From a virus (lineage: Duplodnaviria; Caudoviricetes), in the IMG/VR virus record IMGVR_UViG_3300012200_000007, positions 1-51,831 of that record: 51,831 nucleotides of DNA; one strand, written 5' to 3'. Below the pieces are notes generated by a model. It ran no database searches. It worked only from the letters and a program-made list of their open reading frames with translations, and was not told the DNA's origin. The position numbers and the translations under genes are program-made. Below are positions 21,139 to 50,587 of this stretch, in pieces (within the stretch, counting starts at the first letter, position 1; the number at the start of each line of letters is the position of its first letter).

Positions 21139-22713
21139 TTATCTCACGTCATCACTGACCTCAAAACGGGAGGCACCAGTCAGCAACGTTACAGCAGGTC
21201 CATTCGTTCTGTTAGACATGAGTGATCCGTAAATCCTCAAGCTTGGAGTTGAGCCGTTAATCGAATTGGTTGCCGTCGTGTTGGAAATAAAAACACAGTC
21301 GCGAATCACTGTGTTAGTGTTGGCCGCCGCAAATGCCAGGCAGCGCGAGTTTGCATTTGCCCAGGTGTTCACCACGCGAGATCGATTGAGTGTAAAAGTT
21401 ACGCCAGTGTCTTCGATCAGAATTGTGTTTCCGGTGTCGGAAGCGCCTTCGATGCGTTCAGCTTCAACGGTCAAACTTCCGGCCCCTCCGTCAACAGCCG
21501 GATTTCCGCCCGCGATTGTCTTCGCCTTGACCTTGACCACAGACCCGGAGTTGGTGACATAGATCACGATGTAATTTCCGCTATCCCAAAGGTCGCCATC
21601 GCCAGTAATCGTCGTCGTGGCCGCACCGGCAACATCGTCAAAAAGACCCACGCTTCCCGAAGTATTAGTCACGCTGGCGCCGTTAAAAAAATGCCAGTTC
21701 ACTCCGTTCTTCATCAGGTTCGTCGCCGTGTAAGCGCCCGGCATGACGAAGATCGTGTCGCCGCTTAACGATGCTGTCTTGGCTGCGTTTGGTGTCAGGA
21801 ATGCTTTGGCAGGATCGCCTCTTTCGCCAGTCGAATCACTTCCGTTCTTCGCCACCCAAACCGTATTCGTGAGCGGCACACCACCACCACTGCTTGCAAT
21901 GCCGCCCGTGACACCGCCGCCGCTGGCCAGGATCGACCAATTCGTTCCGCCGCGGGAGCGCAGTTGCACCCCGCCGAAATTGTTGCTCACGACCAGATTC
22001 GTCAGGAGGGTGTCGATGCGGTCGCCGCTCGCCGGATAAATCTTGATCGTGTTCGTGCCGCCCGCCCCGCCTTCATCCTTGATAAGAAACAGGAGATTGC
22101 TCGCGTTCGATGCACTGGGCAGTGTCAAAATCAAATTCGTGTTAGAGCGCGTGTCCACGCCCAGGTAAAGGTCGTTCGTGGTCAGGGTGTAATTGGTCGC
22201 CACGAGATAACGGCCGTGTAATCCAAACCCGGCATCCAATTCGATTTTGCTTAGGCCCCGATTGCTTGAGAGCAAATCCAGATTGGTCCACAGTTGCGAC
22301 GCGTAAGCCGCCGAGAACGGCAATTGAAGCGCAGACGTGTTCGTGGACGGCGCCGATACACTGGACACACTCGCCCATGTTCCTCCTTGAGCTAACGTGA
22401 TGTCCAACCCACGAAACGTGACAACATTCGTTGCGCTCTGATAAACCGTGACTCCAACTTGCGGAAAAAACGACCACGACCGGAACAGGTTCGTTGCCGA
22501 TGCCGAAACACTCGCGCTGTTGGTTTGAATCCCCGTTGTACTCGCCGCGTTCGTCCAGTTCCGCGTGATGCCGTTAACGGTCAAGTTTGTTCCTGCACCC
22601 GGCAACGGTGTGTTCGTAATCGTTACCGTGTAGGTGACGAGAGCGGCATGAAGTCCGAAAGGAAACACGGACAAGACAACCGCGCCAATAAATCGAGCAA
22701 AAAGTTTCTTCAT
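21139..22713 (-). CDS. tail fibre/spike-like protein with a beta-helix-like C-terminus and an N-terminal signal peptide
   Basis: LTLPSAS...IKDEGG..TN.I.I...GDRID fibre module; WVAKNGSD...AFLT...GDTIFVMPGAY; TN-rich. Confidence 0.65.
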   Translation of the reverse strand: MKKLFARFIGAVVLSVFPFGLHAALVTYTVTITNTPLPGAGTNLTVNGITRNWTNAASTTGIQTNSASVSASATNLFRSWSFFPQVGVTVYQSATNVVTFRGLDITLAQGGTWASVSSVSAPSTNTSALQLPFSAAYASQLWTNLDLLSSNRGLSKIELDAGFGLHGRYLVATNYTLTTNDLYLGVDTRSNTNLILTLPSASNASNLLFLIKDEGGAGGTNTIKIYPASGDRIDTLLTNLVVSNNFGGVQLRSRGGTNWSILASGGGVTGGIASSGGGVPLTNTVWVAKNGSDSTGERGDPAKAFLTPNAAKTASLSGDTIFVMPGAYTATNLMKNGVNWHFFNGASVTNTSGSVGLFDDVAGAATTTITGDGDLWDSGNYIVIYVTNSGSVVKVKAKTIAGGNPAVDGGAGSLTVEAERIEGASDTGNTILIEDTGVTFTLNRSRVVNTWANANSRCLAFAAANTNTVIRDCVFISNTTATNSINGSTPSLRIYGSLMSNRTNGPAVTLLTGASRFEVSDDVR

Positions 22714-23315
22714 ACATTCGTCACGTTCACATTCCCATCGTCATCTATCCACAAAACTTTCGTCAGTCCGCTCGGTCTGCTCTTGAGAATAATCTGATCG
22801 CACGGTGTCGCCGAATTGCTTCCATCTTTCGGAACGAACAAAGCTATTCCGGTGCTCACACTCAAAGCAGTTTCAGTCGGAGGAACAACCAGCGTTCCGC
22901 CGTCAATAAACGGCTTTACCAGAGTAGCCGTGTTTCGATACGGATATTGCGGTCCTGTTGCGTCCTCAATCCGAACTTCAAAAACACACTTCACACTGGA
23001 CTCGGATGTCAACGCCGTGGAAATCGGACTTGTATTGAGATAAAAAACACCGGTCTTTTTCGATCCTGAATCCGAGAACGTGTTTTGGAAAGCTAGCTGA
23101 GTCCTGTCCGTGAAATTGAACAAACCGATTGAAAGAGAAAAATCGCTCGGCTCAACAATTGACCACGGCGCATTCGGATCTTCCGTCCGAGTCATCAACG
23201 TATATTCAACGGGTAGAATCTCGCTCCCGGTAAATGTCGGCAGTTGTTCCTGCTGCAACGCGGTGGCGGAACTGTAAATCTTGAAATCGTCGCCGTTGAA
23301 AAGTTTCAGAAGCAT
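22710..23315 (-). CDS. putative baseplate/fibre adaptor
   Basis: Tail context; beta-rich. Confidence 0.5.
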   Translation of the reverse strand: MLLKLFNGDDFKIYSSATALQQEQLPTFTGSEILPVEYTLMTRTEDPNAPWSIVEPSDFSLSIGLFNFTDRTQLAFQNTFSDSGSKKTGVFYLNTSPISTALTSESSVKCVFEVRIEDATGPQYPYRNTATLVKPFIDGGTLVVPPTETALSVSTGIALFVPKDGSNSATPCDQIILKSRPSGLTKVLWIDDDGNVNVTNV

Positions 23316-39439: not shown

Positions 39440-39757
39440 TCACAACGTTTCATCCAGCCAAATACCGATCCGATCCCCGAACTGTTTCATTGTCCATTCG
39501 CGGAAATTATGCGCGCCTTCGGATTTGAACGCTTGGGTATCCCGAACCATGCGCAAGTGATTCAGAAAGTTTTTCGTGCTCTCAATGCTGACACCGACAA
39601 TCGGAGGCTCGGACGCCCGGACAAGCTGAGTCGGCAACGTAGCCGAACTTGAAACAGCCGGGCCCAGGACAATCGCGCCAAGTTTCATGTCGGCTGGAGG
39701 AGGATTAGCGGTCAGGGCTTTCGCCATGTTCGGAAGTTTAGCGGGCTTTGATCTCAT
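39440..39757 (-). CDS. hypothetical protein
   Basis: Internal ATG of the 212-aa track ORF; the upstream extension is antisense to the repeat tract. Confidence 0.5.
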   Translation of the reverse strand: MRSKPAKLPNMAKALTANPPPADMKLGAIVLGPAVSSSATLPTQLVRASEPPIVGVSIESTKNFLNHLRMVRDTQAFKSEGAHNFREWTMKQFGDRIGIWLDETL

Positions 39758-39905: not shown

Positions 39906-40000
39906 CGGGTGCTTTGCGTCAAGGCGTGTCTCGGTCTGTCTTGCCGGGGTGGTCTATGGTGGGGCTTTGTTGGACTGGGTATGTCGGGGCGCGGTAAGGT
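39906..40000 (+). ncRNA. NN-GGY pentamer tract 0 (putative guide RNA), 19 units
   Basis: All 19 units end in a pyrimidine; 10 have an exact GGY triplet. Confidence 0.65.
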
Positions 40001-40004
40001 TCCC

Positions 40005-40640
40005 ATGTTAAAAACAAAAACAAATCGGCTCACTGAAATTTCTGGTGAGAGTCCAAGCAACGGCGCGGAAACATTCATAGAAATGCAAAGGCCATATCGG
40101 GTTCAAGTTGAACTCGAAGGTATGTGTCCGATGTTGTTTCACCGATGGAATAACGAAAGCGTGGCGGCAAAGGCACGCGCAAAGAAAGGCAGTGATGAGA
40201 AAAAAACTGACGATACGGAAGCGTTCATGTGGAAAGACGAAAGAGGTTTCGTTTGTATTCCAGGCGAATACGTTCGTCAGTCCATTATTCACGCCAGCAA
40301 ATACGAGCAAGACCCGCGTAGTCCAAGAAAGTCCATGATGGATTTGATGAAGGCTGCGCTCGTTTCGTTGACTGAACTGGCGAATCTCGGAGTCAAGCAA
40401 CCGGACTTTATTGACCAGCGGCGAGTCGTGATTCAACGGTCAGCAATCACGCGCTCTAGGCCAGCAATGCGGACTGGTTGGAAAGCGAAGTTTGTTTTGA
40501 TGGTTAATCTTCCAGAATACGTGCCGCCGCAGAAACTAAATCATCTCATTCAACAAGCGGGTCGGATAATCGGATTGGCGGATTTTCGACCATCGTTCGG
40601 AAGATTTTCAGTCGTAAAATTTGAAGTACTTGGCGATTGA
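40005..40640 (+). CDS. stand-alone Cas7/RAMP-like protein (VIPR-like effector candidate)
   Basis: VELEGMCPMLFH first strand, IPGEYVRQSI..A, D.RRVVI...R.RP...W...F, and C-terminal G-rich loop AGRIIGLADFRPSFGRF. Confidence 0.7.
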   Translation: MLKTKTNRLTEISGESPSNGAETFIEMQRPYRVQVELEGMCPMLFHRWNNESVAAKARAKKGSDEKKTDDTEAFMWKDERGFVCIPGEYVRQSIIHASKYEQDPRSPRKSMMDLMKAALVSLTELANLGVKQPDFIDQRRVVIQRSAITRSRPAMRTGWKAKFVLMVNLPEYVPPQKLNHLIQQAGRIIGLADFRPSFGRFSVVKFEVLGD

Positions 40641-40645
40641 TTTAC

Positions 40646-40947
40646 GGGGTCGGGCAGGTTTCGGTCATCTTAGGTGTGGTTGGCCAAACTCCGGTTGTGC
40701 CTGTTTCGGTTTGCTTTGGTCGTGTATGGTTTGTTCTTCGCTCTGGTTTTGTATGGACAGGTGCGCCGATGTAAGTTGAGTTGATGTGGGCTGAGTCCTG
40801 ATCCGGTCAGGCTGGGTTGAGCCTGCTTTGTAATGGACAGGCGAGCTATGGTTCGGGCCAGAAATGGCCGGTGATGTTTGGTAAGGCGAGCCACGTTCCG
40901 GTCAGCTTTGATTGGCCGGGGAGTGCTATGGTCAGGTGAGTTTTGGT
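40646..40947 (+). ncRNA. NN-GGY pentamer tracts 1-3 (putative guide array): 40646-40735, 40743-~40857, ~40863-40947
   Basis: 5-nt period with one register shift near 40736-40742; the variable dinucleotides decode to terL-like peptides. Confidence 0.7.
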
Positions 40948-42812
40948 GCCGGTGCGGGCGATGAGTCCGTGCCGGTTTTTTCTTCAACTAGGTCTTCACC
41001 TGCACCGGCCATCTCGAACCACAACGCCAGATATGCAGCGCACATATACAAATGATCCGCAGCTTTTTCCGATGCCTTTTTCCAACGCAGTTCAATTTGA
41101 TTCGTCGCCGGAACGCGATAAGATTCCAAACTCCACGGCAAAAAATGCGCTTTGAAATCTTCGGACACATCCGCGGGAACCTCATATGTTACATCCTTTC
41201 TAGCACGCAAATGAGCCAAGGCATCCATCGCGCCTGACTGGGAAAAATTCCAAAATTCCGGTTCCTCATTTGGATTTTCTTTGGTCGGTCCTTGCTGCCC
41301 AGGAGCTCGCGGCCAGAGTGGTTCCGGTTCCGACCATGCCCGTTTAACCCCATCCTCGTGAGTAAACAACCTTTCACCGCCCCCTTTAGCGCCATGAATT
41401 TTGATCGCATTGAAGCCGTGTTTGAGACAGAAAAAATAAACGTATCGGTCCTCGCCGAGCCATGAAGCGTCAACCGCAACGCAAATCGGTCGAACAGAAT
41501 GTCTCCGCAACACGTCCAACACTTCACCTTCTGATTCCATCTTTCCCTCCCACACTATCAGACAATTTCCAGATTGATCGCAATCTTGAATGATTCCCCA
41601 AAAATGACTTACTTCATTCAGTTCCTTTCGGCCCGTCTGATAATCCAAAACCGCCAGTCTCCATTTCCTGTCAGGCAATCCTTTACGGTCCTTTTTCCGG
41701 CCTGACAAAACAATCGGCGCCGATTCGGGAATGCGGTCATCGGTCCCGATGAACTGGCACTCGCGTTCCCGTAAATAATTCAACCATGGCAACGGATTAC
41801 CCATGCGGCGCGCGCGCAGCGCCACGTGTTTTTGCCGGATCAAATCCATCCACGAAATGTAATCCACGGATACCGATTCCAACGCGAAACTTTTCCAGCC
41901 GGCCTGCGCGCGTTTGTTCCGAGGTTCTCCGTATCGGCCCGACATAGAAAGTTTCCGGCGTTCGCGCACATCATCGTGAACCAGATAACCGCACGGCATT
42001 TGATAGCGGATCTGTATCTTTGAGTAATCCGGTTCATCGCCTTCTTTACGGTCCCCAAGCTCGTAGCGCAAACCTCCCAGGTGCGGATATTCCTTTTCCC
42101 AGCGCGTTCGCATCACGTGAAACTGCCGGCAACCCGGACACTGAACCTCCCAATGTTGCTGCGTGCCCGACATGAACGCCTGGTGCAATTGATCCCCTTT
42201 CCGGCCGGCGTTGCTGATGTTGAAAACGACGCTGTTCCAAAACGCGGTCGTGCGTCCATAGGCTTGTTCCAATCTTCCAGGAATCCAATTGTCGGCATCG
42301 TGCAGTTCCTCGTTCACCTGCCCGCGAATCGTATCACCCGTCACGCTCCGCTCGGTACTGATTCCCTGAACGATGAAATTAAGGTGCGGAAAAATAACCA
42401 ACCCGTTCGTCCACGCGAACCTGTCAGCCGATGTCCTGGCCATCACCGGAGCGCACGCCAGCAACTTTTTCTCGATGTGCTTTTTCCAGCGCGAATCGGC
42501 GTGCAGATCATTCGGCCAATTGTATTGCACGTCACCGCTCGACCAGTTCGCCAGCCAGAACAGAATCACAATTTCTCCGACCGAAGTTCCACCAGCCTGA
42601 ATCGGTTTGATGAACGTCATCCGCCGTGTCCCGTCGTTCCCGCACTCAATCGGCTCGCGCGTCCAAGGAGTTATGTTCGCGCGAAACTGTTCAGACCTTG
42701 CGGACCCGACCAGTTTAACGTTGGTTTCGGCCCAGTCCACGACCGAAGCCGGCGCGGACTTCGGCACGGCCTCGACCATCTGAGAGAACAGCCATTGCGA
42801 AGCGGCGCTCAC
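40932..42812 (-). CDS. terL: terminase large subunit (lambda GpA-like)
   Basis: DWAE..V.L, TPW.REP, KPIQAGGT, RTTAF, CPGC, nuclease-domain LDYQ...HFW, DHLYMC. Confidence 0.88.
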   Translation of the reverse strand: MSAASQWLFSQMVEAVPKSAPASVVDWAETNVKLVGSARSEQFRANITPWTREPIECGNDGTRRMTFIKPIQAGGTSVGEIVILFWLANWSSGDVQYNWPNDLHADSRWKKHIEKKLLACAPVMARTSADRFAWTNGLVIFPHLNFIVQGISTERSVTGDTIRGQVNEELHDADNWIPGRLEQAYGRTTAFWNSVVFNISNAGRKGDQLHQAFMSGTQQHWEVQCPGCRQFHVMRTRWEKEYPHLGGLRYELGDRKEGDEPDYSKIQIRYQMPCGYLVHDDVRERRKLSMSGRYGEPRNKRAQAGWKSFALESVSVDYISWMDLIRQKHVALRARRMGNPLPWLNYLRERECQFIGTDDRIPESAPIVLSGRKKDRKGLPDRKWRLAVLDYQTGRKELNEVSHFWGIIQDCDQSGNCLIVWEGKMESEGEVLDVLRRHSVRPICVAVDASWLGEDRYVYFFCLKHGFNAIKIHGAKGGGERLFTHEDGVKRAWSEPEPLWPRAPGQQGPTKENPNEEPEFWNFSQSGAMDALAHLRARKDVTYEVPADVSEDFKAHFLPWSLESYRVPATNQIELRWKKASEKAADHLYMCAAYLALWFEMAGAGEDLVEEKTGTDSSPAPAPKLT

Positions 42813-49505: not shown

Positions 49506-49721
49506 TCACGCTTCTTCTGTTAAAATGCCAATCACTTTTGGTTCCCCGACTAATTTGAACGACTTTCCGCCCGCATGTATCGCCGTAATGAGTGATGATT
49601 TTGCGGATTCAGCCGCTTGTCTATAAATCTGGCCTACGGTGCATTCCTCACCCCATCCATTGCCAGCTTCGACTTCGACCGTGATTTGCACGCGGGCATG
49701 TGCTTTAGTTTGTTTGTTCAT
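49506..49721 (-). CDS. hypothetical protein
   Basis: WGEECTVGQIYRQA pattern. Confidence 0.55.
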   Translation of the reverse strand: MNKQTKAHARVQITVEVEAGNGWGEECTVGQIYRQAAESAKSSLITAIHAGGKSFKLVGEPKVIGILTEEA

Positions 49722-50587
49722 TTTGAATCACGTTTCAGTTCCGAAAAAAAACTACACCACGGCGCCGCATTGCAATAATTCTCACACCGCACCTGCTCAC
49801 CGGGCCGCAACTCGATCCGGTGTTTCTTGTCCAGTGTCGCGAGGTGCGCCAAGGCACCCGATTCCGTGTCGTGCAGCTTCACCGCGCGCTCCCGGCCTTC
49901 TTTGTGGATTGCCCACTTGGCCGGTTTCTCCCAGCGCTCTTCGCTAGTGCATTCAGGCAATGCTTGTCCACTTTCCAATGCGGATTTTGCATTCTGATGC
50001 AAACAAACTCTCGTCATCATCCACGCTGCCGCTTTTTCCATCGGCCACAACGGAACATCAAACACCTGAACCTGATGTTGCGGATAATCAGACGAACGAC
50101 GGGCCTCCAGTTTCGACCAGTCTCTGTAGAGCGCGATAATCTGAGCGGACTTCAATTCGATACCGTTGCGATGCGCCAGCCATCTCAGCGCGTTCAATTG
50201 CTGTTCCCATTCCGGCTTCAAACCGTTCTTGCAACTCCAGCAAGTTGTGAACTTGTAATCGATCAGCAAGTCAGGCGGAATCAGGTCCGCTTGACCGCTC
50301 ACTTTCCAGCCGTTGACTTCCGCAAACAGCCGCCGCTCGACCATGCCTTCGACCGCCGCGCGTTCCAGGATGCTGTGACCGATCTGGCCGACGAGCGACC
50401 AGAGCATTTCGGATGCGTCCTGGACAATTTCTTCGCGGTGTTCGCGTTCGAGTGCGACGGCGCGCGGGGGCTTCAGGAGCGAAGTGACTGTGATGTCGCT
50501 TCCTTTGCTGTCGTAGGGATCTCGACGCACGGCGTTGACCAGCGGTTCAGGGAGTCCGAGGCGGTTGGTAATTATTTTATCAATCAC
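49718..50587 (-). CDS. Cas4/RecB-like PD-(D/E)xK exonuclease
   Basis: G..GHSILE, E.RL, SGQADL, IDYKFT, QLN, C-terminal C..YC...WC. Confidence 0.85.
   Translation of the reverse strand: MIDKIITNRLGLPEPLVNAVRRDPYDSKGSDITVTSLLKPPRAVALEREHREEIVQDASEMLWSLVGQIGHSILERAAVEGMVERRLFAEVNGWKVSGQADLIPPDLLIDYKFTTCWSCKNGLKPEWEQQLNALRWLAHRNGIELKSAQIIALYRDWSKLEARRSSDYPQHQVQVFDVPLWPMEKAAAWMMTRVCLHQNAKSALESGQALPECTSEERWEKPAKWAIHKEGRERAVKLHDTESGALAHLATLDKKHRIELRPGEQVRCENYCNAAPWCSFFSELKRDSK

Follow-up and report, generated by a model that had tools for sequence, protein, structure and literature searches.

Guides of a soil-phage VIPR array match a terminase nuclease-domain site more closely in relatives than in the phage's own gene

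The stretch of DNA analysed here (hereafter, 'the window') is a complete virus record of 51,831 bases. Its sequence is present in X1 and X2, two soil metagenome runs from which it may come; a Logan contig of run X1, a possible source of the window, is identical across 39950-41800. The minus strand bears most of the genes of the window, among them those for the primase, a helicase, structural proteins, the portal, and the terminase large subunit (terL). A plus-strand cassette, in which a single gene is preceded by a repeat tract and followed by a repeat array, lies between terL and the genes before the portal gene; in the related phage L008, which is without the cassette, terL is followed directly by a homolog of the 39443-39556 region of the window. 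The cassette opens with an upstream tract of 14 GGY/NN units (T0; 39933-40002), the last of which likely serve also as the ribosome-binding site of the gene that follows, vipr (40005-40640), which encodes a protein of 211 aa that a profile match to PDB entry 36pp identifies as a putative RAMP-like guide-binding protein. Downstream of vipr lie tract 1 (40648-40737; 18 units; common to related strains in runs X4 and X5), tract 2 (40735-40854; a single phase throughout), a 5-bp spacer hairpin with a GAAA loop (40856-40869) that splits tract 2 from guide 3, guide 3 itself (40870-40944; 15 units), and a terminator-like 12-bp hairpin with a T run (40948-40985). Tract 2 comprises two overlapping 13-unit guides, 2a (40735-40799) and 2b (40785-40849). 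The gene terL (40932-42812, minus strand; 626 aa; gpA-type; PF05876, E 2.5e-14; PHROG 15) is convergent with vipr, and array and terL overlap at the terminator, which lies on the strand opposite to the last terL codons. The hairpin at 40948 folds with a z of -4.5 (0 of 200 shuffles as good) and the spacer hairpin with a z of -2.0 (9 of 200 shuffles fold equally well); judged by eye, similar hairpins also split the arrays in the five closest relatives among those listed. RNA sequencing runs containing the window were absent among the runs listed. Elsewhere in the window, distant from vipr, an exonuclease (49718-50587, minus strand) gives a weak match to a Cas-associated PHROG family.

The protein encoded at 40005-40640 has 2816 homologs and no Pfam match. 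A profile of 40 of the homologs, searched against 177,635 PDB sequences, gave a sole significant match, to 36pp, 'SUSP1 Vipr protein' (E 9.5e-10; next match, E 0.31). The residues that align to SUSP1 E71, R138, D177, and R179 are invariant in the 40 homologs, so that RNA-binding G-loop and thumb residues are conserved, and the equivalent of SUSP1 W178 is F here; the available text of 10.64898/2026.04.26.720927 reports that loss of SUSP1 R138 or D177 abolishes silencing. GGY/NN runs occur within 800 bases in 78 of 80 viral loci with vipr relatives (the best 80 of 355), whereas the terL loci, 1.14 Mb in total, contain 11 such runs, and all four GGY/NN tandem runs in the 51.8-kb window flank vipr. 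The three decoded guides are 13, 13, and 15 units long, vs. a range of 9-16 units for VIPR tracts. The GGY scaffold is degenerate (exact in 7 of 16 units from 40870), and the protein is ~27% identical to the Vipr of the Escherichia phage matches. A search of Rfam gave no family at gathering score, and the single sub-threshold match was rejected as chance. Judged from sequence, the cassette is a VIPR system, and a RAMP fold is predicted for the vipr product by homology to the solved SUSP1 protein.

According to the available text of Yoon et al. (10.64898/2026.04.26.720920; PMC13142463), in which the code and the wobble argument are already set out along with inter-phage targets, VIPR systems share with this locus a ~210-aa Vipr RAMP homolog, an upstream tract plus a downstream array, GGY/NN units, a one-base wobble skip, in-frame targets in other phages, and self matches below 80%. 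Unlike the VIPR systems described there, this locus has no apparent vap gene beside vipr and no SUSP1-like repeated 3' tail or pseudoknot seen in the array, where hairpins come after tract 2 and after guide 3; neighbouring guides in it abut, share three units, or have a short hairpin between them; its scaffold is degenerate; and the targets found are terL and helicase. The code itself is therefore not new, and the locus is a further case of VIPR. Its contributions are a target in the terminase, a single site matched by two guides in different clades, guides that overlap, and a modest sign of possible amino-acid escape in the phage's own terL.

The original prediction was that the repeats from 40868, read as dinucleotides that skip every third base, spell a divergent terL allele. 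Both the dinucleotides that it listed (16, starting at 40868) and the terL codons that it quoted (minus strand, 41583-41624) are exactly as it gave them: 10 of 14 dinucleotides are the same, in codon phase, and the remaining four comprise one that can be synonymous (Leu), one I/V difference, and two at codons 401 and 402, at which all four read bases of the phage's own terL are unlike guide 3. The first dinucleotide, cc (40868-40869), does not belong to the guide as had been supposed; it is the 3' arm of the 5-bp spacer hairpin at 40856-40869, and guide 3 is accordingly 40870-40944. The best-matching relative (see below) has Lys, not Pro, at the codon under this cc, and the search pattern put forward with the prediction, which opens with CC, would have missed it. 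Guide 3 has the sense of the terL mRNA, its skip base falls on the wobble position, and the phage's own copy of its target site is 41580-41624 (minus strand), encoding terL residues 397-411 in the nuclease domain.

With a one-base skip, the 16 units find their best match within the window at terL 41581-41627, where 23 of 32 bases agree. The self match withstood the shuffle null that had been proposed for it: 23/32 was reached by 2 of 1000 order shuffles, and the 22/28 obtained with 14 units was reached by 1 of 1000 shuffles of bases and by 0 of 1000 shuffles of whole dinucleotides. The corrected 15-unit guide 3 matches the phage's own terL at 23 of 30 bases (77%), a score reached by 3 of 500 shuffles; four of the seven self mismatches are adjacent, and the nine units at the 3' end match at 16/18. 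When 212 natural guides of 15 units, drawn from related arrays, were scored on the window, none reached 23/30 (best, 22). Reading with skips of 0, 2, or 3 bases, in reversed order, or in parallel orientation gave at most 19-21/32, the level of shuffles (mean 19.75), and the self match thus exceeds shuffles with a one-base skip only.

The further claim that the guide is aimed at a related phage's terL, which would fit better than self, held at the level of protein, and on DNA no better fit was found among 67 terL loci. The first two codon bases are fixed for most residues, so relatives' proteins can be scored against guide 3, and the scores for 16 relatives are bounds derived from their proteins; kinship is given as pairwise identity to the phage's own terL. 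Relative P0004 (74% identical) must match guide 3 at 29-30 of 30 bases, P0003 and P0287 (77%) at 28-29, P0008 at 26, P0002 (79%) at 25-27, and P0010 and P0012, which are only 57-61% identical, at 24. By lower bound, 3 of the 16 relatives match at at least 28/30 and 8 at at least 24/30, with 8 below that score, vs. 23/30 for self. At each of the four residues where guide 3 departs from self, P0004 agrees with the guide, and it also has the guide's Leu-compatible position. Within the footprint, four positions do not vary across the 16 sequences aligned. Pfam family PF20454 spans the aligned region in homolog P0014, placing the target site in the gpA nuclease domain; a search for a solved structure matching the terL profile found none.

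On DNA, none of 67 terL loci fits guide 3 better than self (best, 21/30); these loci are mostly 30-55% identical to the query, the closer ones stop short of the site, and they include no close-relative DNA covering it. The terL loci comprise 26 viral loci, 41 metagenome loci, and 1 genome (a MAG with 46% identity); vipr occurs in none of them, and this terL family occurs in none of the vipr loci. An exact scan of viral contigs with the 5' ten units of guide 3 gave 0 matches. The same scan with the 3' ten units gave 7, all of one unrelated family with in-frame stops and without terL homology, which were rejected; they match at 22-23/32 overall and indicate that short gapped matches can arise by chance. 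Run X5 contains a contig of 574 bases that is 82-87% identical where it flanks the target site and is strongly diverged over 41491-41631. The C-terminus of P0003 resembles the terL stretch opposite the array terminator (40932-40976), and a close relative with a guide-matching allele may therefore carry the same cassette.

The same terL site is matched, in a distant relative, by a second guide. The 12 units at 40785-40844 match the terL DNA of locus L034, which encodes a terminase 56% identical to the phage's own, at 24 of 24 bases, and the 13 units of guide 2b match it at 25/26; the match site is orthologous to the target of guide 3. Guide 2b matches the phage's own terL at 15/26. On the same 68 loci, 0 of 452 foreign 12-unit windows scored above 20/24, and with the full tract 2 searched against 147 loci the ten best matches were all at the terL site of guide 3. 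The 13-unit cut of guide 2b was picked once the motif had been seen; the unselected 22 units match at 31/44, a score reached by 1 of 200 shuffles. Guide 2b has as its basis one perfect DNA match, in a 2.9-kb contig, and two exact scans of viral contigs with this guide returned 0 and 0 matches.

These results bear on whether the match of guide 3 to terL is an accident of a G/T-rich repeat. The chance family recovered with an exact 10-unit core speaks for an accident; the shuffle and foreign-guide nulls, the better fit of relatives at the positions where self differs, and the presence of a second guide on the same terL site speak against it, and we regard an accident as extremely improbable.

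Guide 2a has a target of a different kind. This target was first found in L008, in a gene for an AAA_25 helicase (22/24). A 10-unit core of the guide gave 27 exact matches in viral contigs, all 27 in frame and all in one AAA_25 helicase family (Pfam AAA_25), representing 22 distinct contexts; each of the two upstream units that were not part of the search fits in 13 of the 27. The best match is 25/26 over 13 units, at a conserved helicase site. The phage itself lacks a gene of this kind, as a tblastn search of the window gave no match to the AAA_25 helicase. Guides 2a and 2b have in common three in-phase units (40785-40799) that fit both targets; the shared units may mark a point at which guides recombined or may reflect overlapping processing.

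Tracts 0 and 1 gave no comparable result. Neither had a target with up to three mismatches in any of 31 virus records, both were at shuffle level on the 147 loci, and an exact scan of viral contigs with tract 1 gave 0 matches. Read on the reverse strand, tract 1 matches the phage's own terL at 16/36, which was rejected, as were weak matches of T0 at the start of terL in L012 and L066 (20/28 and 19/28), which were equalled by 94 of 200 shuffles. In the strains of runs X4 and X5, vipr and tract 1 are kept and the repeat sequence after 40737 is different. This is the pattern that turnover of guides would produce, with the array changing beyond one constant point, and it suggests a recent origin of guides 2 and 3.

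In the published SUSP1 system, as described in the available text of 10.64898/2026.04.26.720927, one Vipr subunit per repeat holds GGY, NN pairs with the complementary DNA strand, and every third target base is flipped out in an R-loop triplex that is first resolved at the 3' end. Binding by SUSP1 VIPR is reported, in the same body of partly available text, to block transcription from either strand, without a PAM and without cutting, and the skip of the wobble base to prevent escape by synonymous change (Yoon et al., 10.64898/2026.04.26.720920). Two elements of the original prediction, a gapped, wobble-skipping code with an anti-phage aim and a same-sense guide that pairs with the template strand, thus coincide with the published VIPR mechanism; each of the three decoded guides is sense with respect to its target mRNA and would therefore pair with the template strand.

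By analogy with SUSP1, the array would be co-transcribed with vipr and end at the 40948 terminator, the NN pairs of guide 3 would bind the terL template strand with Vipr subunits lined up on GGY, and transcription of terL of co-infecting kin would be blocked without cutting. The seven mismatches, four of them adjacent, would keep binding at the phage's own terL from reaching the threshold and so spare self; at 77%, self falls just below the 80% cut-off of Yoon et al. The array would be layered, with guide 3 directed against close kin, guide 2b against distant kin at the same site, and guide 2a against AAA_25-helicase phages, such that packaging and replication genes of competing phages would be repressed. 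We consider it highly probable that guide 3 is a VIPR guide that fits the terL of close kin better than the phage's own and so directs Vipr repression of the packaging gene of co-infecting kin, with preference among alleles resting on proteins for guide 3 and on DNA for guides 2a and 2b.

The same numbers admit a reading in which guide 3 binds the phage's own terL weakly by design, damping or timing expression of the packaging gene. The self match is significant; at the 3' end, the part of SUSP1 filaments that is resolved first, it reaches 16/18 and may permit weak self-binding; and the convergent array and terL overlap at the terminator. However, relatives fit far better than self, including P0010 and P0012 despite their distance, and, according to the available text of 10.64898/2026.04.26.720920, no self match reaches 80% in the guide sets tested there (P. 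fulva, type III, and type V). We judge self-regulation very improbable.

Repression of kin by guide 3, the preferred reading, raises the matter of how the phage's own terL came to differ at the target site. Relative to the majority of seven close relatives, the phage's own terL is changed at 4 of 12 conserved columns in the footprint (T401V, P402S, V407I, and F411C, at columns 401, 402, 407, and 411) and at 25 of 400 elsewhere (Fisher p 0.007); under a stricter three-relative rule the values are 3/12 and 18/394 (p 0.02). A comparable excess is absent in P0002, P0003, and P0004, and P0002 has Ser at 402, like the phage's own terL, and also differs at position 407. In a ranking of 15-residue windows the footprint ties as most changed with another region (window starts 325-330), and the substitution signal is therefore modest. 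The footprint changes may reflect drift, pressure from the phage's own guide, or pressure from rivals' guides. We advance tentatively, and hold somewhat less probable than its converse, the proposal that two guides converge on one nuclease-domain site and that the phage's own terminase changed amino acids there, wobble changes being no escape. If this is true, VIPR would discriminate among kin and in doing so drive the amino-acid evolution of a core viral enzyme, and a substitution footprint under guides would be a detectable trace of VIPR pressure.

That the phage's own allele is the odd one is also what would be seen if guide 3 were a relic, that is, if it fitted the ancestral terL of this phage, the own gene has since evaded it through amino-acid changes, and no competitor of today is involved; a possible route is acquisition of the cassette from a rival, and the cassette lies between terL and the next gene, which adjoin in L008. 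Against a relic, relatives with matching alleles exist now, the divergence of the X4 and X5 strains after 40737 suggests recent guides, and for guides 2a and 2b the fit is confined to foreign genes. We consider a relic unlikely.

Related work touches several of these points. The available text of Lopez et al. (10.64898/2026.10.15.759431) describes solo and kin-directed vrRNAs of SUSP1-family phages that resemble the guides here in being directed against relatives, in having self-match scores below non-self scores, and in targeting codon-determining positions of a conserved catalytic region. The kin targets named there are vipr, vrRNAs, and satellites, whereas the target here is a core gene for packaging, on which the phage itself depends, and, unlike in that work, the own copy here is set apart by amino-acid changes. 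The word 'terminase' occurs twice in the available text of Lopez et al., in the methods, 0 times in the main text and supplementary PDF of Yoon et al., of which the Data S3 tables and figure images may list such targets, and 0 times in the available text of 10.64898/2026.04.26.720927 and of a fourth preprint, on bulk recovery of VIPR arrays (10.64898/2026.10.21.760802). Searches of mostly open literature found no paper on terL-directed guides or on amino-acid escape in a carrier's own gene. Phages also carry mini-CRISPR arrays, whose guides are directed against related phages and competitors and act by contiguous pairing with host Cas proteins. Unlike those arrays, this phage uses a gapped code and its own effector. 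The locus provides a natural VIPR case beyond enteric and Pseudomonas phages, in a soil phage with three guides decoded, and the matched series of alleles at one site (own, close kin, and distant kin) makes mismatch tolerance and amino-acid escape directly testable.

Several minor observations concern arrays and Vipr proteins in other loci. In L148, L109, L134, and L083, unbroken GGY/NN runs of 47-70 units adjoin vipr relatives; these are well above the 9-16 units of single vrRNAs and are likely abutting guides. In L056 (11-165; 11 units) and L057 (812-966; 20 units), GGY/NN runs lie upstream of a small gene before terL, no vipr was found within the DNA of either locus, and the runs are possibly solo guides. 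Two longer Vipr relatives may be fusions: P0142, of 336 aa with two matched stretches, and P0273, of 553 aa with a match at 380-511. Phage DSL-LC04 (OR003939.1) encodes at 22435-23010 a Vipr homolog 52% identical to that of the window, annotated as 'helix-turn-helix transcriptional regulator', and is an isolated phage whose Vipr is closer than that of SUSP1.
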